This document shows positions 1 through 57,932 of a stretch of DNA of 64,000 bases, in pieces (positions within the stretch are counted from its first letter, which is position 1; the number at the start of each line of letters is the position of its first letter). Below the pieces are notes generated by a model. It made no database searches. It was not told where the DNA came from and saw only the letters and a list, made by a program, of their open reading frames with translations. Source of the stretch: Octopus vulgaris (Eukaryota); assembly GCA_951406725.2 (NCBI GenBank), contig OX597816.1:117800001-117864000 (forward strand). Direction: 5' to 3'. A program made the position numbers and the translations under genes.

Positions 1-2211
1 TTACATTTTCGGTGTTTTTCTTTTCTCTTAGTTTGCAAGAAGTTTACCTGGCGTTTCTTCCTCGACTTCTTTATTTAGGAAGATACTCTTTCAATAATGT
101 GAAATCGAATACATTTGTAAACAGATATATTATATCTAGCGCTTCCGGCTATTCGTCAAATGTAGAAAGCTTAGTAATCGTTACTAATCTTATGTCAGAT
201 AACTAAAAAAGGAGGGGGAAATATTGCTTTTCAACTAAAAATATAAAAATAAATAAAATAAAATTCTACATCTGTCAGTAAGAAAGAATTGAATAACTTA
301 CAAGTGACTGAACTCTGTTAGTGAGGAGTTTCATGTTCTTCAAGTGATTGCTTTAATGGGTCTTAATGGGACATATCATCAATACTTTTAGAAATTTACT
401 AGTCTCTTCATCAGTGCAACCTGTAATCCACCTAAAGTTTCAACCACGCCAGCTTCTCTCCAACTCATTTTTCTTTCCCCACGTCTTGTCATATAACTAC
501 TTTCTTTAAAAATAAAGAAGAAAAAAACAAAACAAAAGCAAACAAAACACAGATCTTTGAAATACACTTTGCCACATATTTTTTAAAAGTTTTAGTTGAA
601 ATAACTTTACTCTTTCACTCTTAGAAAATCTAACACTGTTGACAACTGTATTTCGGTTAAAATAAAGAAGTTAAAATATTGTTGTTGACTATTTATTTCT
701 TTTTCTATTTGTTACCCAATTGATTGCAATACTATATTTAGTGACGTTGAGAACGCGGAAAAGCAGCAAGAGGCAAATTACCAGTAAACTCAGAACAATC
801 AAATCCATGAAATTCCTGTGTTCCAACCATGACTATTCAGAATTTTTGTTTTAGGCCTAACATATCTAGGACTACGTTACCCACAGCATTTATTTTTAAG
901 AGAGTGGTTTGTAGTTTGAAGGGGATTTGGCTGCTAATTCTAGCATATATATCCAGTGGTCACAAAGAGGCACTCTTGTAGCTCGTCTACAAGTTTTGGT
1001 CTGTAGTTGAAGCATTTCCATCTAAGCTAGGCAACGAAATATTTCTATTAAAGACACGAAAAGAGCACTATTTTATTTTCTCTTCTCTAAGATAAAGGTT
1101 TTGTACATTCTCAAAATAAAAGCGTTATTATATTTGACGACATTCATTTAAGATTTGATCATAAAGCTGAGGTCGCCAAAGCTGCAAGAAAAAGGCAGTC
1201 ATAAATCGCCCTCATATCACACCCAACTCTGATAACCATAAAGTTCACATTGTATAATATTGTTCTATGTAAACTAAGTATGAAAACAAAAGATGGAATG
1301 GTTATGAGTGGAGCGCCCTTGATATAATCTACCATTATCTGATCCAAGCCTAAAACCAACAGTGCGATCCCTTTTGATAAACCATTGGTTTCCTCAACTA
1401 AGGTCAGCTAATTTAAGGAGAGGCAAACGCTGCGGCATCGTTTATAAATTTCCAAAGTTCATTAGAAGCATAACTAATACAAATAATAGAATCTGGTTCG
1501 GTTTATACAAAGCCTACCTTTTATCAATTTACTCGATCAATTTTGTGAAGTACATCATAAATTTAGGAATGTTTCAGAGACGAGCCTTCTATGTGGGAGC
1601 TCAGCCTGATAGGACGCATAATGAAAATAATCTCTCAAATCAAACTCTATCGCGTAAATAAACAGGTTAGAGTTTGGTTTGAGGGATTATTTTTCATTAT
1701 GCTACCTATTTTTTCATTATGTTTCTTTCATTATTTTTTCATTAGTTTTTCATTTTATATTTCATTCATTTTTTTTTCTTCATTGTGCTTCCTTTACTTA
1801 CACGATAGAGTAGGTAATGCAGGTCTTGATGGACGCTACCAAGAAAGATAAAAACGAAAAGGTCACGGGCTGAATATCCTTGCTTCAGTGTATCTTCAAT
1901 CAGAGCACATGTGGAACTAAACAGCAGCAGCAACAGCGATATCAACAGCAACAACGATGATGATAACAGAGATAACAACACCATAAACAACAATGACAAA
2001 TATTTTACAACTGATCTCAAGATGCCCAAAATTTCGAGGCGATTGCATATAAAAATAGCAGTCATTCGTTGACACTCAGAATGTTAAAAAAAAGTCCTAA
2101 AAAATTGTCATACTTTTGTAAATATTGTAATTTCGAAGTTCTGTTATTTGAGCAAGTTATTTTTATGAAAAAAGAAAAAAAAAGTAATTTTAACACTAAA
2201 ATACGAGAAAA

Positions 2212-2662
2212 TTGTTAGTGAATTTCCTCGGTAAAACTCATTTCAATAATACAGTTCTATTTTTAAGAGATGAGGAATTATGTACATTATTTACATTTGA
2301 CGGATATTTGTCCCCATCTTGTTTGTTGTTAACACAACGTTTCAGCGTTTATCAGGTGTCTTGGGGAAATTTCGAACCTGGGTTCTCATTCCTAAAGTAT
2401 TTTTCGATGTTATTATTATTATTATTCAGGTCACTGCCTGGAATCTTGGGGTTAGTAGCTCGCGCTCTTAACCACTACGCCATATGTCCGTGGACAATTA
2501 TGGAGTGAATTTTTAGGGCAGATATGAATAGCATATGGGAACCGGTATTAAGGAAGGATAAGAAAATATTAGATTTATAAGCCCTAAAAATTCACTCCCA
2601 CGGGCGTGAGCGCGGGCTACTAACCCCAAGATTCCGAGTTCGATTCCAGGCAGTGATCTGAC

Positions 2663-2710
<48 letters not shown>
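2212..2710. mobile_element. tRNA-headed repeat present as a head-to-head inverted pair, with a degenerate hammerhead remnant
   Basis: 2409-2519 is the reverse complement of 2581-2675 (GCCCTAAAAATTCACTCC...GCGCGGGCTACTAACCCCAAGATTCC...CCAGGCAGTGA, then (AAT)n). A-box-like TGGCGTAGTGG on the - copy; B-box-like GAGTTCGATTCC on the + copy. On the - strand, 2331-2360 reads GACAC-CTGATAA-ACGCT-GAAA-CGTT-GTGTT. Confidence 0.65.
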
Positions 2711-2713
<3 letters not shown>

Positions 2714-3059
2714 TTAAAATATTTTGAAGAACGTGCATTTCTTTAAGTTATTGAGGTAACTGTTATCATGATTGTATCGATCACTTCCATCTGCAATTTC
2801 CGAAGTCCTTTTGAAAGACAGAATGACATAAGAATGCCTAAGATATATGAGCAGTTAAAAATGTTTGCGGATGAAGTTATTCTACTTCTCATAATGATGG
2901 GGGGGGGGGGAATTCTCAAACAATGTAAAAAAAAATTCGTTTAGTTAAATTGCAAAAAATTAAAATACAAAACTCCATGCGCTAATGTTTGAAGAAAATA
3001 CTATTCATGCAGAACCCTGCGAAATGTGGCTACTCACAACAAGCTACAAAAGTAAGGAT

Positions 3060-3192
3060 GAGATGAAGAAGGCGAAGAAGAAGAGGAAGGAAGAAGCAGA
3101 GGAAGAAGAAGAAGGCGAAGAAGAAGAAGAAGAAAAAGAAGAAGAAGAAGAAGAAAAAGAAGAAGAAGAAGAAGAAGAAGAAGAAGAAGAAG

Positions 3193-3230
<38 letters not shown>

Positions 3231-3290
3231 CGACGACGACGACGGCAACAACGACAACAACAAAAGCGACGACGACGTTGATGATGATGA
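3060..3290. repeat. compound trinucleotide microsatellite (GAA/CAA/CGA/TGA)
   Basis: Read directly; explains the poly-E/Q/R ORF 2985-3281. Confidence 0.95.
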
Positions 3291-3318
3291 TTTCTAATTT
3301 TGGCACAAGTCCAGCAAG

Positions 3319-3658
3319 ACGTTTACGGATTCCATGGACAGCGAGGCTCACCAATGGATAAGTTCTTAAGCAGATCAGGCCGAAAATGTCGCTAGAAGCT
3401 AGGATCACCAAGCCTAGATTGGCATATTTCGGTCATATTATTCGGAGAAAATCCCTGGAGAAGGACATCATACTCGGAATGGTCAGTGGCAAGAGAGGAA
3501 GAGGCCGACCAAGAACCCGCTGGCTTGACACCATCAAGAATGACACGGGAATGGCCATAGCCAATCTGAAAGAAGCGGCCCAGGATAGAACTGACTGGAG
3601 AACACTGATCCAACGAGTGACCGAGAGTCGACTTCGACTGAGCGGATAGATAGATAGA
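3319..3658 (+). mobile_element. 5'-truncated RTE-clade LINE 3' end
   Basis: Translation RLRIPWTAR...RLAYFGHIIRR...LEKDIILGMVSGKRGRGRPRTRWLD...AAQDRTDWR is the typical RTE C-terminus. (GATA)n tail; 8-bp TSD CCAGCAAG at 3311-3318 and 3659-3666. Confidence 0.9.
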
Positions 3659-3709
3659 CCAGCAAGTTCAGGGGAGAGGGTATGTCGATTATATCAACGC
3701 TAGACCTAA

Positions 3710-3895
3710 ATTGTCATAAGAGCAACAATTTGTGAGGAGGAGATGAATCGATTACATCGACGCCAGTGTTCAACTGGTACTTATTTTATCGACCCCAAAA
3801 GGATAAAAGGTAAAGTCGACCTCGACGGAATTTAAACTCAGAACGTAGCGACAGATGAAATATCGGTGCTAACGATTCTGCCAGCTCGACGCCCT
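3710..3895 (-). mobile_element. tRNA-derived SINE, family B (GTCGACTTTGCCTTTCATCCTTTCGGGGTCGATAAAATAAGTACC-type core)
   Basis: Same sequence recurs at 5880-6085(-), ~6950-7100(-), 16668-16850(+), 45752-45970(+) and ~61000-61150(-); B-box-like GAGTTCAAATTC in the better-preserved copies. Confidence 0.8.
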
Positions 3896-3944
3896 AATAA
3901 TGATAATAGTGGTTCGCATGGCTTCTTATCTTAAGTGTCTGAAT

Positions 3945-4525
3945 GTGTTATCATGTACATATTTTGCCTTCGTGTAGCAAATTTTTTGCCCAATATCACA
4001 AATTTGCTTGACGGTATTTCCTGTGGCAATACAAGGCAGTTGGCTCATGGTTTCTGACCTTAACTGATTGGAAGTGCGAACGTGTACATGTTTTGTCTTG
4101 GTATAAAAGATGAGCTACAGCAAATATCCTGCACAATACCACAGATTTACTTGTCAGTTGTTTGACCTTAACCAGTTTGAGTATGCCGTGGCTGAACAAA
4201 TGTGCATTTCTGATAACGAGCAGAAGTAGCGGTGGAGCATCATAGCCATGTGTTGAGAGGAATTCCTTGGAGTTTGAATAGTTCACCTCTGGAAACATGA
4301 GTGTTTCGTCCAACATCCTTAAACAACCCTTATTCAGAGACCTTTTGAGCGAGATGGGCTTCTCGACCTGAAGAAAATCCTAACTAGGCCCCGTCGTGAT
4401 GCATGTTCCTGGTGTACCCTTATCAGACGGGTAGTCATGATGGGTATCCTAGGTTTCGTATATTTTACCCCAGTATCACTTTGATGACATGCACTGCTCT
4501 CTCAGTCAATAATAATAATAATAAT
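3945..4525 (+). mobile_element. unclassified interspersed repeat ending in an (AAT)n tail
   Basis: Its 3' end TATTTTACCCCAGT.TCACTTTGATG.CATGCACTGCTCTCTC followed by an AAT/AAC tail is repeated at 47829-47885. Confidence 0.55.
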
Positions 4526-26425: not shown

Positions 26426-26512
<87 letters not shown>

Positions 26513-26593
26513 TCCCGGGTTGATTCGGGGTTAACCACAGTAAGTAAGGTACTCAATACATAGCAGAGTAAAATTAATTTATTATATAGAAGG

Positions 26594-26644
26594 AGCTTCT
26601 ACAGGACTAGTACTGTTTCATTCAAGAGAAATCTTCAGGAAGCT
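26594..26644 (-). ncRNA. type I hammerhead ribozyme
   Basis: On the - strand: stem I AGCTTC, core CTGAAGA, stem II (T)TTC-TCTT-GAA(T), GAAA, stem III CAG-TACTAGTC-CTG, GUA cleavage triplet, stem I GAAGCT. Confidence 0.85.
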
Positions 26645-27030
26645 ATTTAACAAGAATTGTATTAGCATTTATACATTTAGAGGAGTGGTGGTGGGGGACT
26701 TTTTGGGGGTAGGCATAGCGCAAAATATCATACTTGGGGGAGTGGTCAAGGTAATAAAAAAATAAAAAAATAAAAAATAAAAAAATAAAAATAAAAAGAT
26801 AAAATAAAAGAATAAAAATAAAAAATATAAAAAAAATATAAAAAATATAAAAAATATAAAAAATATATATAAAAAAATATATAAAAAAATATATATATAA
26901 AATATATATATAAAATATATATATAAAAAAAAGGGGGGATAGAGTTATAGGTAAATAAGGAGATTCTCACTTATACCTACACACACATGTATACGTATCT
27001 ACACACACATACGCACATACACATATATCT

Positions 27031-27085
<55 letters not shown>

Positions 27086-27544
27086 CCTACACATACACAC
27101 ATACATACATACAAATATACATATACATATATATATATATACAATCCAATACAGGCCCATTCCCTAATTTTAATTTTATTATCTTCATTTATTACTTTTG
27201 TTATCTTTGATCGCTAGGGCTAAGAATCCTGGCAATAGCTGCTTGTCCGTTTGTCTGTCTACTAGAAGGCAAGTACTCATTCCCGCACGCACACTCATTA
27301 GCACGTACATTCACCCATTCGTACACTCATACACATACACGTACGCACGCGTTATATTCATACATACAAACATCTACATACGTTCACGTATATACACATA
27401 CGTACTCGTACCTACAGATACGTGTCTACACTTTAGGAGGCTAGTCTATACATATACACCAATAAATATACATATATATATATATATATATACCCGCATA
27501 TACATACACACACACACATATATACTCCTACATACAGATACATA

Positions 27545-27592
<48 letters not shown>

Positions 27593-27800
27593 TATACATA
27601 TACATACATATATACACATACATACACATACACACATACACATACACACACATACATACACATATATATACATACACAAACATATATACACACACATATA
27701 TATACATACACACATACACACATACATACGTATACATACATACATACATCTATACATCCATACTTACATGCATTTATACGCATACACACACCCATCTATA

Positions 27801-27837
<37 letters not shown>

Positions 27838-28116
27838 TCACACATACATATACAAATCTACGCACACACATACGTACATACACGTATACGCATACACGCA
27901 CATACACATATACATGCGTACCCATACACGTGCACACACGCACGCGCATCCATATAAATACACACACACACATATATATATACACGTGTGCAAGCATACA
28001 TACATACTCATACGCGCACACATACTTACAAATACATATATGCACACACTTACACACATATATATACATACACATATACATGCATACATACATATATGCA
28101 TACATACACACACGCA

Positions 28117-28164
<48 letters not shown>

Positions 28165-28812
28165 TACACATATATATACATACATAGACATACATACACA
28201 TACATACACATACACATACGTACACACACATATACACATATATATATATACATATATATATACATATACACATATACGCATACATATATACACATATACA
28301 TACATATACATACACACACACATACATATATACATATACACTGATACACATACCCATACATACACATGCCTATACTTATATTACTACATACTCACATATA
28401 TAGACATATATACATATACACACATACATATATACATGTACATACACATACGCATGCATATATATATATATATATATATACATATATATACACATATATA
28501 TATATATACATATATATACATACATACACATACACACACACATACATATACACATATACATGTATACATACGCAAAAATGATACGCATATATACACATAC
28601 ACACACACAGACAGATGCATATACATACATATATATATATATAAACTACATATCTATATAAATACATACATAATACACATATACACACACATATATATAC
28701 ATTCATGCATATACATATACAAGTATACATACACAAACATACACACACACGCGCACACATACATATACACACACACATATACAAATACATACATGCACAC
28801 ATACACACACAC

Positions 28813-28857
<45 letters not shown>

Positions 28858-29520
28858 CATGTACACATATACATATGTATATATATATCAACAAGGGAGG
28901 GTAAAGTTAATTAGTTATTAATCAAATTCATCAAGTGTTCAGTATGTAAAGGGACCATTATTATTTTGAGTAAACAATGTTAGAGGGAAAAAAATTCTCT
29001 AAGTAGTGGAAGAGGCTAAAAAACTTTATTGGCTGCTATTTCTAGAAAGTTTAGTATGTGGCAAAGTAATTTATTTTATTTTCCTAAGCCCTAATTATAA
29101 TATTTTATACATACATACACATACATAAGCACATACATTTACACATACATATGCATATACATATATACACATATACATACAAACACATATACACATATAC
29201 ACACACACACACACATACAAGCACATACATACATATATACATATATATACACACATATATACACATATATATACATATATATATACATGCAAATATATAT
29301 ACATATATATTTTTACATGCATACATACACACACACACACATAATACATGCGTATATTCCTACTGTACCCATGCATTTCTATACATATATACATACATAC
29401 ATACGATACACATATACAAGCGTGCACATATAATATGTGAAAGGTCTTAGGAGAAAAGGTAATCGGGGGTGCTAGGGGAACAGTGGGGTTGGGGGGGGTT
29501 GTAGGGGGGGGGGGTTGTCA

Positions 29521-29902
29521 TCAATCAGGTTGCCGGTTAGGTCTATAGTTCTTGTAGTTCGCATACTTCTTATGCATACAGTTTGGGGAGTGTTCTGAAA
29601 ATTTGTTAAGGAGAGGGCCTTTGGCGAACAAGATCTCTAGGCTCTCTGATATGCATAGGTCACAGCAGGTATGTCCTCCTGTGTACGAGCGCGCCTTCTG
29701 TAGTAGTTTCCACTTGGTCTTGAAGGGGATTGAGTTCCTTTTAAGGTACCAGATGTGGGCGGCGAGGGTAGTTTGGTTGGATTTATCCTGTCGCCGGAAC
29801 GAGTGTGTATGTGCATACCAGCGGGTCTTAAAGCTGTTTGACGTCATTCCAATGTAGGATTTACTTTTATCGTCAAGGCCTGATCTTACCTCGCATTTAT
29901 AT
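29521..29902 (-). pseudogene. inverted copy of the GIY-YIG endonuclease domain (5'-truncated)
   Basis: Same protein as 30447-30828 except N/T near the C-terminus. The N-terminal part of track ORF 29521-30021 is antisense of the spacer. Confidence 0.85.
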
Positions 29903-30828
29903 GCGTACCACAAACCAAATGAATCCCTTAGATATATAGATATCAATTCCAACCACCCCAGAAATATATTAGATAACCTAGTAAAAAGTGTCTCAATTAG
30001 AATCTCTAGCCTGTCCGCCACGGAAGATATCTTTAAGGCCGCAGCCCCCTATTACAACGAGGCCCTGGCCCGCAGTGGTTTTAAAGATAAGATTACCTAC
30101 ACTAGTATAGCCCCACGCCAACCCAGGAAAAATAGACGAAGACACATTAGCTGGTATAACCCCCCTTCAACCGTGAGGTCGCTACACCTGTAGCTAAGAT
30201 CTTTTTCACTCTCCTACAGAAACACTTCCCCACCCAACATAAGTACTACACTATCCTAAATAAGAACACTATTAGACTCTCCTACTCTACCACGCCCAAC
30301 CTAGCCAGGAACTTAGCCAACAACAATGTGAAAAAACTTAACATATCTACTTTCTCCGGGGCCCATCCAACGTCCGATAGCAATTGCAACTGCCATGATA
30401 AAACCACCTGCCCCCTCAACAACAACTGCCTACAGAGGGACCTAGTATATAAATGCGAGGTAAGATCAGGCCTTGACGATAAAAGTAAATCCTACATTGG
30501 AATGACGTCAAACAGCTTTAAGACCCGCTGGTATGCACATACACACTCGTTCCGGCGACAGGATAAATCCAACCAAACTACCCTCGCCGCCCACATCTGG
30601 TACCTTAAAAGGAACTCAATCCCCTTCAAGACCAAGTGGAAACTACTACAGAAGGCGCGCTCGTACACAGGAGGACATACCTGCTGTGACCTATGCATAT
30701 CAGAGAGCCTAGAGATCTTGTTCGCCAAAGGCCCTCTCCTTAACAAATTTTCAGAACACTCCCCAAACTGTATGCATAAGAAGTATGCGAACTACAAGAA
30801 CTATAGACCTACCCGGCAACCTGATTGA
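29903..30828 (+). pseudogene. 3' part of the Naiad PLE ORF: RT thumb, Cys-rich linker and GIY-YIG endonuclease
   Basis: AYHKPNESLRYIDINSNHP..RISSLS..YNEALARSGF..WYNPP / 1-nt frameshift in the C-run at ~30160-30166 / FNREV..KHFP..RLSYSTTPNL..CNC..CPL..CL..LVY..YIGMTSNSFKTRW..H..HIW.LK..CDLC..E..LLN..E..CMH. Confidence 0.9.
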
Positions 30829-31501
30829 TGACAACCCCCCCCCCCCTACAACCCCCCCCCCAACCCCACTGTTCCCCTAGCACCCCCGATTACCTTTTCT
30901 CCTAAGACCTTTCACATATTATATGTGCACGCTTGTATATGTGTATCGTATGTATGTATGTATATATGTATAGAAATGCATGGGTACAGTAGGAATATAC
31001 GCATGTATTATGTGTGTGTGTGTGTATGTATGCATGTAAAAAAATATATATGTATATATATTTGCATGTATATATATATGTATATATATGTGTATATATA
31101 TGTGTGTATATATATGTATATATGTATGTATGTGCTTGTATGTGTGTGTGTGTGTGTATATGTGTATATGTGTTTGTATGTATATGTGTATATATGTATA
31201 TGCATATGTATGTGTAAATGTATGTGCTTATGTATGTGTATGTATGTATAAAATATTATAATTAGGGCTTAGGAAAATAAAATAAATTACTTTGCCACAT
31301 ACTAAACTTTCTAGAAATAGCAGCCAATAAAGTTTTTTAGCCTCTTCCACTACTTAGAGAATTTTTTTCCCTCTAACATTGTTTACTCAAAACAATAATA
31401 ATGGTCCCTTTACATACTGAACACTTGATGAATTTGATTAATAACTAATTAACTTTACCCTCCCTTGTTGATATATATATACATATGTATATGTGTACAT
31501 G

Positions 31502-31546
<45 letters not shown>

Positions 31547-32194
31547 GTGTGTGTGTATGTGTGCATGTATGTATTTGTATATGTGTGTGTGTATATGTAT
31601 GTGTGCGCGTGTGTGTGTATGTTTGTGTATGTATACTTGTATATGTATATGCATGAATGTATATATATGTGTGTGTATATGTGTATTATGTATGTATTTA
31701 TATAGATATGTAGTTTATATATATATATATGTATGTATATGCATCTGTCTGTGTGTGTGTATGTGTATATATGCGTATCATTTTTGCGTATGTATACATG
31801 TATATGTGTATATGTATGTGTGTGTGTATGTGTATGTATGTATATATATGTATATATATATATATGTGTATATATATGTATATATATATATATATATATA
31901 TGCATGCGTATGTGTATGTACATGTATATATGTATGTGTGTATATGTATATATGTCTATATATGTGAGTATGTAGTAATATAAGTATAGGCATGTGTATG
32001 TATGGGTATGTGTATCAGTGTATATGTATATATGTATGTGTGTGTGTATGTATATGTATGTATATGTGTATATATGTATGCGTATATGTGTATATGTATA
32101 TATATATGTATATATATATATGTGTATATGTGTGTGTACGTATGTGTATGTGTATGTATGTGTATGTATGTCTATGTATGTATATATATGTGTA

Positions 32195-32242
<48 letters not shown>

Positions 32243-32764
32243 TGTGTGTGTGTATGTATGCATATATGTATGTATGCATGTATATGTGTATGTATATATA
32301 TGTGTGTAAGTGTGTGCATATATGTATTTGTAAGTATGTGTGCGCGTATGAGTATGTATGTATGCTTGCACACGTGTATATATATATGTGTGTGTGTGTA
32401 TTTATATGGATGCGCGTGCGTGTGTGCACGTGTATGGGTACGCATGTATATGTGTATGTGCGTGTATGCGTATACGTGTATGTACGTATGTGTGTGCGTA
32501 GATTTGTATATGTATGTGTGAGTGTGTATATATATATATATATATATATACATATATATAGATGGGTGTGTGTATGCGTATAAATGCATGTAAGTATGGA
32601 TGTATAGATGTATGTATGTATGTATACGTATGTATGTGTGTATGTGTGTATGTATATATATGTGTGTGTATATATGTTTGTGTATGTATATATATGTGTA
32701 TGTATGTGTGTGTATGTGTATGTGTGTATGTGTATGTATGTGTATATATGTATGTATATGTATA

Positions 32765-32804
<40 letters not shown>

Positions 32805-33263
32805 TATGTATCTGTATGTAGGAGTATATATGTGTGTGTGTGTATGTATATGCGGGTATATATATATATATATATATGTATATTTATTGGTGTATATGTA
32901 TAGACTAGCCTCCTAAAGTGTAGACACGTATCTGTAGGTACGAGTACGTATGTGTATATACGTGAACGTATGTAGATGTTTGTATGTATGAATATAACGC
33001 GTGCGTACGTGTATGTGTATGAGTGTACGAATGGGTGAATGTACGTGCTAATGAGTGTGCGTGCGGGAATGAGTACTTGCCTTCTAGTAGACAGACAAAC
33101 GGACAAGCAGCTATTGCCAGGATTCTTAGCCCTAGCGATCAAAGATAACAAAAGTAATAAATGAAGATAATAAAATTAAAATTAGGGAATGGGCCTGTAT
33201 TGGATTGTATATATATATATATGTATATGTATATTTGTATGTATGTATGTGTGTATGTGTAGG

Positions 33264-33314
<51 letters not shown>

Positions 33315-33685
33315 AGATATATGTGTATGTGCGTATGTGTGTGTAGATACGTATACATGTGTGTGTAGGTATAAGTGAGAATCTCCTTATTTACCTATAA
33401 CTCTATCCCCCCTTTTTTTTATATATATATTTTATATATATATTTTATATATATATTTTTTTATATATTTTTTTATATATATTTTTTATATTTTTTATAT
33501 TTTTTATATTTTTTATATTTTTATTCTTTTATTTTATCTTTTTATTTTTTTATTTTTTATTTTTTTATTTTTTTATTACCTTGACCACTCCCCCAAGTAT
33601 GATATTTTGCGCTATGCCTACCCCCAAAAAGTCCCCCACCACCACTCCTCTAAATGTATAAATGCTAATACAATTCTTGTTAAAT

Positions 33686-33736
33686 AGCTTCCTGAAGATT
33701 TCTCTTGAATGAAACAGTACTAGTCCTGTAGAAGCT
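33686..33736 (+). ncRNA. type I hammerhead ribozyme
   Basis: AGCTTC-CTGAAGA-TTTCTCTTGAAT-GAAA-CAG-TACTAGTC-CTG-TA^GAAGCT; predicted cleavage after 33730; same sense as the + strand ORF. Confidence 0.85.
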
Positions 33737-33747
33737 CCTTCTATATA

Positions 33748-33833
<86 letters not shown>

Positions 33834-56623: not shown

Positions 56624-56678
<55 letters not shown>

Positions 56679-56761
56679 GGTCCCAGGTTGATTCGGGGTT
56701 AACCACAGTAAATAAGCTACTCAATACATAGCAGAGTAAAATTAATTTATTATATAGAAGG

Positions 56762-56812
56762 AGCTTCTACAGGACTAGAACTGTTTCATTCAAGAGAAAT
56801 CATCAGGAAGCT
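56762..56812 (-). ncRNA. type I hammerhead ribozyme
   Basis: On the - strand: AGCTTC-CTGATGA-TTTCTCTTGAAT-GAAA-CAG-TTCTAGTC-CTG-TA^GAAGCT. Confidence 0.87.
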
Positions 56813-57083
56813 AGTTAACAAGAATTGTATTGGCATTTATACATTTAGGCAGGTTTAAAGGGGTGGTGGTGGGGGACTTTTTGGGGGTAGGCATAGTGCA
56901 AAAATATCACACTTATGGGAGTGGTCAAGGAGTCAGTGGTAAATTAGATAAAAGAATAAATAAAAGAATAAAAAAATATATAGAAGAATAGAGTTTTAGG
57001 TAAATAAGGAGATTCTCACTTATACATATACACATATGTATATATATACACACACACACACATATACATACACACATACATAT

Positions 57084-57135
<52 letters not shown>

Positions 57136-57415
57136 GTGTGTGTATATGTATGTGTGTATGTATATGTGTGTGTGTGTGTGTATATATATACATATGTGTA
57201 TATGTATAAGTGAGAATCTCCTTATTTACCTAAAACTCTATTCTTCTATATATTTTTTTATTCTTTTATTTATTCTTTTATCTAATTTACCACTGACTCC
57301 TTGACCACTCCCCAAGTATGATATTTTTGCGCTATGCCTACCCCCAAAAAGTCCCCCACCACCACCCCTTTAAACCTGCCTAAATGTATAAATGCCAATA
57401 CAATTCTTGTTAACT

Positions 57416-57466
57416 AGCTTCCTGATGATTTCTCTTGAATGAAACAGTTCTAGTCCTGTAGAAGCT
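57416..57466 (+). ncRNA. type I hammerhead ribozyme
   Basis: AGCTTC-CTGATGA-TTTCTCTTGAAT-GAAA-CAG-TTCTAGTC-CTG-TA^GAAGCT; predicted cleavage after 57460. Confidence 0.87.
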
Positions 57467-57507
57467 CCTTCTATATAATAAATAAAATATATATATATAT
57501 ATACGTT

Positions 57508-57932
57508 ATGGTATTTTTATATAAGTTTAAAGTGATCACTGTGCAATGACTAAGGAAAATAGTCTAACAACGGGCCCCTCGACAGAAAAAAATAGAAGGT
57601 TTTTCTATCCACGTGGGATATGAACCTACATCCCTTTGTTTACGCGACTAAGTGTGTTACCTTTACACCAGCGGATTAACCTCCCTGGTTCCTTCAAATT
57701 TAAGAGCTATATTAGTTCGTGTTTGTTTTTTATGTAAACAAACTTTCTGTATGCTTTCGGTGCGAATGGTTTTGTTATATGGTGCCGTATTTTACAATCC
57801 TGTAAATAATAATAATGGTATTTTTATACAAACCTAAAGCTTATGGCGATCACCGTGCAATGACTAAAGAAAATAGTCTAATAAAGGGGCATATAAGCTA
57901 TCGACAAAAAAATAAGGCTTTCCTATCTGTGT

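Follow-up and report, generated by a model that had tools for sequence, protein, structure and literature searches.

Lopsided inverted pairs of a Penelope-like element in (TA)n repeats of the Octopus vulgaris genome

Members of the Hydra clade of EN+ Penelope-like elements (PLEs) carry a C-terminal GIY-YIG endonuclease, a DKT motif and canonical hammerheads, and they insert into (TA)n (Craig et al. 2021, PMC8557442). The same study describes an inverted truncated copy and a one-sided tail as typical of PLEs, and its supplement includes Hydra-1_Obim from Octopus bimaculoides. For an Anolis element studied in vitro, cleavage and extension take place on both DNA strands, the tail is delimited by two internal sites at which reverse transcription is initiated, and ribozyme cutting is dispensable (Frangieh et al. 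2024, PMC11167929). Penelope elements of Adineta vaga form inverted head-to-head pLTR junctions for which self-priming has been proposed (PMC3846280). In LINE-1 and SVA, an untemplated G has been read as a copy of the cap and hence as the mark of a capped start (PMC4859970). Inverted architecture, one-sided tail, TA preference and two-site initiation are already published features (Craig 2021; Frangieh 2024). The formation of inverted PLE ends is nevertheless only partly known, and the octopus family described here provides counts from a genome for comparison with the in vitro result of 2024.

The locus studied here occupies positions 56676-57483 of a 64-kb window of O. vulgaris DNA, the whole stretch that was analysed and the one to which all positions given without a locus name refer. 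It consists of two 5'-truncated copies of a Hydra-clade PLE in inverted orientation, set in (TA)n. The left arm (56676-57115, minus strand), recognized by its matches to family copies, is a 5'-truncated copy of the element's 3' end, or pLTR. It ends at 56676 with ...GGGACCTAC directly against the (TA)n target repeat of the left flank (56628-56675). Its last 69 nt (56676-56744, minus strand) are the tail, which is the stretch between the two putative priming sites and which continues into the start of the open reading frame (ORF) in tandem copies. The right arm (57116-57483, plus strand), delimited by its sequence and by comparison with the left arm, is a 5'-truncated copy without the tail. It stops at CTATATAATAAA(T), 57482/57483, and is followed by AAAA and then by the (TA)n of the right flank (57487-57503). 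The left arm would have been primed at site 2 and the right arm at site 1. The predicted hammerhead cut after 57460 lies 22 nt before 57482, and the left arm extends 69-70 nt past the point where the right arm stops, which is the length of the tail. Arm ends, cut-site distance and tail length were all re-derived, and they agree with those given in a first-pass annotation of this DNA. The right flank continues at 57504-57900 into another high-copy repeat, in which a motif of ~50 bp recurs ~315 bp apart (near 57535 and 57850).

The two arms meet head to head within a TA tract at 57096-57135, located from the sequence and from sister copies. It had been proposed that the arms were joined through such a tract, and the junction does lie in (TA)n. 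The tract is found at the same place in 13/13 sister copies displayed, which identifies it by comparison as the element's own 3' UTR microsatellite and not as target DNA.

Each arm carries a type I hammerhead motif in its pLTR with the core and three stems present. The left motif lies at 56762-56812 (minus strand), with a predicted cut between 56768 and 56767, and the right one at 57416-57466 (plus strand). Both were recognized from core and stems in the sequence together with a constrained fold; an Rfam scan of the 64-kb window gave 0 matches at the gathering score. The constrained hammerhead fold of the 51-nt motif has a free energy of -7.3 kcal/mol, compared with minima of -7.6 and -8.5. 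When flanks are included, free folding does not give the hammerhead fold and a rival hairpin wins, with z between -1.2 and 0. The rival hairpin, at 57457-57478 (plus strand), extends across the cut site to a point just short of priming site 1 and is in competition with stem I. Such competition may keep the ribozyme inactive. Stem III and its loop (57435-57459, plus strand) are nearly self-complementary, as expected for dimeric PLE hammerheads, and the predicted self-dimer of this segment is worth -12.8 to -15.2 kcal/mol compared with -1.4 for the hairpin. It is a speculative idea that the self-complementary loop III holds two RNAs together for a dimeric enzyme. A TATA-like box is present 29 nt upstream of the first base of the ribozyme, at 56835-56841 (minus strand) in the left arm and at 57387-57393 (plus strand) in the right arm. 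That first base, 57416 (plus strand) in the right arm, is the proposed RNA start and the junction hotspot of the family (see below).

Identity between the arms is 98.3% over 289 nt. Apart from the microsatellite, three substitutions and one indel separate them, all within the 20 bp at 56897-56916, so that an earlier description of arms diverged by a few substitutions holds. The arm variant of this cluster occurs three times among 108 matches in the fetched loci. Three occurrences are what the overlapping fetches of this locus (L001, L052 and L060) would give, and the variant is therefore probably private to it. These differences bear on whether the palindromes are mirrors produced by assembly, or fold-backs that arose by chance in microsatellite DNA. 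Simple repeats are very abundant in the region and none of the short-read contigs examined spans the whole locus, which leaves room for an artefact. Its probability is nonetheless negligible given that the arms differ, that the same fixed asymmetric ends recur at every pair counted below, and that head-to-head family junctions are present in short-read contigs of two other runs. The short-read junctions join 56777-56812 to 57416-57438, which is the mini form of the palindrome. The first-pass annotation had argued against an assembly mirror from the arm differences, and the short-read junctions reinforce that judgement.

A second insertion in the window, a palindrome of 7.2 kb at 26508-33753, belongs to another subfamily. 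It has a tailed arm on the minus strand and a longer, untailed arm on the plus strand. Its ends are asymmetric in the same way and are 85-86% identical to those of the 0.8-kb palindrome over the end region. Ribozyme differences between them are CTGATGA/CTGAAGA and TTCTAGTC/TACTAGTC; they are confined, as had been reported, to N7 and a loop, which is loop III. The centre of the 7.2-kb palindrome encodes, in two frames on the plus strand, a 5'-truncated and frameshifted ORF remnant (29858-30828). It comprises the reverse transcriptase (RT) thumb (29858-30193) and the GIY-YIG endonuclease with a CxCX5C linker (30160-30828). A one-base frameshift in a C run between RT thumb and linker (30160-30170) is common to many near-identical copies, among them L063-L069 and L144-L169. 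The open frame measures 222-225 aa in most of the protein-level copies scored in the genome. The shared frameshift could stem from a defective source copy that was mobilized in trans, from slippage that recurred or from an assembly error in the homopolymer.

Family copies elsewhere in the genome (2.8 Gb in 227 contigs were searched) are 94-100% identical at the protein level among the 150 scored of many. They encode a single ORF with RT as well as a C-terminal GIY-YIG endonuclease. A tandem copy at L140:7772-9913 has an ORF of 713 aa with YRDD and a YIG motif near its C-terminus. DKT replaces DKG, and the linker and two further motifs are CNC-x5-C (CxCX5C), CDLC (CxxC) and CMH (CxH). The N-terminal motif is of the RWK type without being an exact RWK, reading RWR in the 713-aa copy and RWRS in another. 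Partial tandems, an inverted 5'-truncated copy and a tail at one end only complete the architecture of an EN+ PLE. On these motifs the family is placed in the Hydra clade. A Neptune-clade PLE, the first guess, needs a CX2-5CxxC linker and CCHH, and was rejected because the linker is CxCX5C; a CCHH motif was absent by eye from the 713-aa ORF copy. In a protein search, 1,116 relatives, most of them unnamed, had E values of 1e-20 or better, and the 120 of these that were listed are 37-52% identical. The relatives carry PF00078, PF01541 and PF26215. Direct Pfam scans of ORF pieces and of a 680-aa copy gave only weak unrelated matches, with no RT or GIY-YIG match. Other retroelement ORFs, some of them Penelope-like by eye, lie less than 10 kb from family copies at L084, L123 and L130.

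The repeat unit is 4,782 bp long in L140-141. Hydra-clade elements are described as 'generally short (<3 kb)', which PMC8557442 gives as a tendency and not as a criterion, and the excess in the octopus unit is 3' UTR microsatellite. In L140-L141, unit positions 2190-4420 consist of ~2.3 kb of (TG)/(TA) microsatellite with a few conserved unique islands. With a 3' UTR of this kind, each insertion would seed new microsatellites and new (TA)n targets.

A 31-mer from the element end has 4,402 exact matches in the genome and its reversed control has 0, so the copy number is far beyond chance. Back-to-back insertions of the family number roughly 2,000 in the genome. The first 100 of the 4,402 matches correspond to 63 consecutive loci on contig C1, which were fetched with an upstream margin of at most 10 kb. 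Arms were counted from BLAST matches, and matches ending before query position 255 were dropped. Among 121 arms, 64 have the tailed end, 56 the short end and one another end. Thus 120/121 arms end at two sites ~69 nt apart, in a sample that under-represents ends upstream of site 1 because the seed 31-mer reaches to that site (the short end). All 121 arms adjoin (TA)n, in which target-site duplications are unreadable. Every one of the 52 head-to-head pairs combines one tailed and one short end (binomial p 4e-16), and 16 of the 121 arms (12 tailed, 4 short) have no inverted partner inside the fetched stretch. Genome-wide, the plus strand carries 1,172 tailed and 1,163 short ends. A histogram of endpoints had been put forward as a check, and it yields the two sharp peaks that were foreseen, one per arm. 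The idea of two defined priming sites, one used by each arm, with head-to-head joining of the products, is likewise upheld by these counts.

It is likely, in our assessment, that each insertion results from two target-primed reverse transcription events on one source RNA, in a scheme that includes a capped start and run-off mini palindromes. The endonuclease would cut both strands of a (TA)n tract, and each target 3' end would prime at one of two sites within the RNA that lie 69 nt from each other; at both, a few A/T bases are available for pairing with the target. Each of the two cDNAs would then stop independently. Their 3' ends would be joined via self-complementary bases, in the case of 56676-57483 those of the element's own (TA)n tract. 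Both priming sites would recur near the 5' end of a transcript that starts, capped, at the first base of the ribozyme. Priming at this 5' copy would run off after ~68 and ~137 nt and yield abundant minis of 200 bp. The ribozyme would be mostly uncut in the templates that are copied. In LINE-1 twin priming, the region of the RNA copied from the second primer lies upstream, without overlap, and no palindrome is formed, whereas both primers of the octopus PLE would copy the same region from two fixed sites.

The first-pass annotation had placed one of the two primers at the RNA 3' end. With a query that bridged the tail end and the beginning of the ORF, 92 candidates were obtained, and 40/40 of those scored run through the junction into the ORF, whose ATG lies 47 nt after the tail end. 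Since tandem copies continue in this way, the 3' terminus of the RNA is not at the tail end, and both priming sites are, on the evidence of these copies, internal to the RNA. Whether ribozyme cleavage or circular RNA sets the ends was also considered. Genome-wide, 684 loci have their head-to-head junction within or at the start of stem I, compared with 12 at the predicted cut site, which speaks against such a role and led us to reject ribozyme-cut or circular templates as the main source.

Within pairs, the arms agree at two polymorphic sites in 45/45 and 50/51 cases (Fisher p 5e-9 and 1e-13). This agreement points to one source copy for both arms, although later gene conversion could have produced it instead. 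It would also be expected if a single cDNA primed at the tail end folded back and self-primed the second arm, so that only one target-primed event took place. Self-priming has been proposed for PLE inverted junctions (PMC3846280), and junctions in the octopus family often fall in self-complementary sequence (AGCT or (TA)n). A fold-back origin is very unlikely, however. The untailed arm contains the longer, unique part of the ORF in the large element of the window and in L128 and L129. An untailed arm that exceeds the tailed one in length cannot arise by a single fold-back from the latter, and thus two primings are needed in at least those cases. In L100 the longer arm, judged by ORF strand, is the tailed one, and rougher measures of 16 long pairs give a longer tailed arm in five, a longer untailed arm in five, equal arms in four and an unresolved result in two. 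A cDNA primed at site 1 would, moreover, have no tail to copy, and two start sites are used in vitro (PMC11167929). In the chimeric copies L143, L146 and L158, an ORF-bearing cDNA is fused directly to another piece whose beginning is the proposed RNA start, a pattern suggestive of template jumps from one RNA 5' end to another.

Most pairs in the sample are minis. They make up 38 of the 52 pairs and measure 136-307 bp by BLAST in the 63 loci, with 17 of the 38 at 199-202 bp. Their abundance and tight clustering, and the many recurrences of two junction types, might suggest that the 200-bp minis are self-propagating non-autonomous units, resembling MITEs or retrozymes, that derive from master palindromes or circular RNA. 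We regard this as quite improbable. The mini junctions shift from locus to locus by single bases, both loop variants share the same junction types, and lone arms that directly adjoin (TA)n also start at the base of the hotspot. Retrozymes are arranged as direct tandems (bioRxiv 10.64898/2026.07.22.740005) and the minis are inverted, and only the 12 loci mentioned above join at the cut site. Both established classes were also rejected as assignments in their own right. A non-LTR retrozyme needs direct tandem hammerhead units. A MITE needs symmetric TIRs, a fixed interior and a DNA transposase, whereas the ends here are asymmetric in 52/52 pairs, the centres are variable and the arms are continuous with an RT ORF.

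The minis offer a view of the RNA start. Alignments of the 76 mini arms start at stem I's first base in 27 cases and further upstream in 6. Counting by hand through the first 100 of 173 matches gave 78 loci at which a lone arm meets (TA)n directly. The first A of stem I is kept in 49 of these, where the preceding base is a G (28 loci), C (9), A (6) or T (6). At this position the element has T, and the target could supply only T or A. The junction pile-up, the TATA-like box 29 nt upstream and the frequent untemplated G together indicate a likely capped start of the RNA at the first base of the ribozyme, with the minis as run-off products from the 5' copy of the tail. The mini junction includes the self-complementary AGCT, in which a start at its first base and a start two bases further on are indistinguishable by alignment, and an annealing bias there may sharpen the junction peak. 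ORF-bearing copies begin within 3 nt of the proposed start in 4 of 30 cases. Most of the other 26 reach further upstream and two start downstream, which implies that read-through or tandem templates are common. A related sequence, probably a sister family (L140:7589 and loose ends in runs X1, X3 and X9), has a different upstream region and the same ribozyme start, with a TATA-like box at the same 29-nt distance.

Twin priming could hold and the hotspot still have another cause, namely an RT stall at a folded or protein-bound ribozyme, or a splice junction in place of a capped start. Stem I and an AG splice acceptor preceded by a pyrimidine tract both lie at the hotspot, and in the D. virilis Penelope the end of an intron overlaps the ribozyme (PMC4209133). 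We consider a stall or splice origin doubtful given the sharpness of the boundary, upstream of which only the 6 of 76 arm starts are found, and the prevalence of a single extra G as the commonest preceding base. The TATA-like box, its counterpart at the same distance in the related sequence (three runs), and the ease with which long copies pass the hotspot weigh in the same direction. We therefore retain the capped start, and we lean towards a picture in which most insertions are strong-stop-like run-offs, with both strands primed at the 5' tail copy of a capped RNA that contains an uncut hammerhead. If so, the genome would record the start site of the element, and show that each of the two priming sites serves once, and only once, per insertion, on RNA of a single source copy. 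No PLE report using the terms 'untemplated G', 'strong-stop' or 'twin priming', or interpreting the RNA start in this way, was found in the literature outside subscription papers and bioRxiv supplements.

Overall, the palindrome is a real feature that was correctly predicted. The product had been described as a ribozyme-tipped retro-palindrome that mimics MITEs; the element is a PLE, and the lopsided palindrome is not a class of its own but a published PLE signature, here displayed by a new family of a known clade. What the family adds is the use of one site per arm in all 52 pairs, the origin of the arms from one source and the rarity with which ribozyme cutting is used. The minis likely map the RNA start independently of RNA data. 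For annotation, they also serve as a warning that MITE look-alikes of ~200 bp in TA repeats can be PLE stubs.

The closest described relatives are those of the Hydra clade (PMC8557442), with which the family shares the GIY-YIG endonuclease, DKT, the CxCX5C, CxxC and CxH motifs and an N-terminal motif of the RW type. Also shared are a type I hammerhead of the same layout, the (TA)n target and the inverted 5'-truncated copy. The octopus unit differs in its length of ~4.8 kb, with a microsatellite-filled 3' UTR, from the less than ~3 kb given for the clade, and its tail of 69 nt exceeds the 30-40 bp of the PLEs described there. The ribozyme is not that of Hydra-1_Obim, and three short motifs of the family gave 0 matches in the supplement of Craig et al. 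2021 (PMC8557442). On these two grounds, it looks like a family separate from Hydra-1_Obim.

As proposed for the octopus family, AT-rich DNA is cut and extended on both strands, two internal starts flank the tail and ribozyme cutting is dispensable in Poseidon PAc of Anolis carolinensis (PMC11167929), an element of another clade. In PAc the tail lies inside the ORF, whereas the octopus tail ends 47 nt before the ATG. Priming of PAc is described as non-homologous to the target, and both octopus sites match (TA)n over a few A/T bases. The pairing of one site with each arm and the mini palindromes, both counted here, fall outside the treatment given in PMC11167929. Two primings on one RNA also produce inversions in LINE-1 twin priming, and LINE-1 resembles the octopus family in the extra untemplated G before the start (PMC4859970). 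Head-to-head pLTRs, an optional tail on one of them and a TATA box in the pLTR are common to the octopus family and the Penelope of Adineta vaga (PMC3846280). The dual minimal hammerheads of Schistosoma, pairs of ribozymes 100-700 bp apart on opposite strands (PMC4209133), are similar to the minis. In those accounts the arrangements are explained by self-priming or as plain truncated copies, and the RNA-start hotspot with its extra G is described for the octopus family and not in the accounts of PMC3846280 and PMC4209133.
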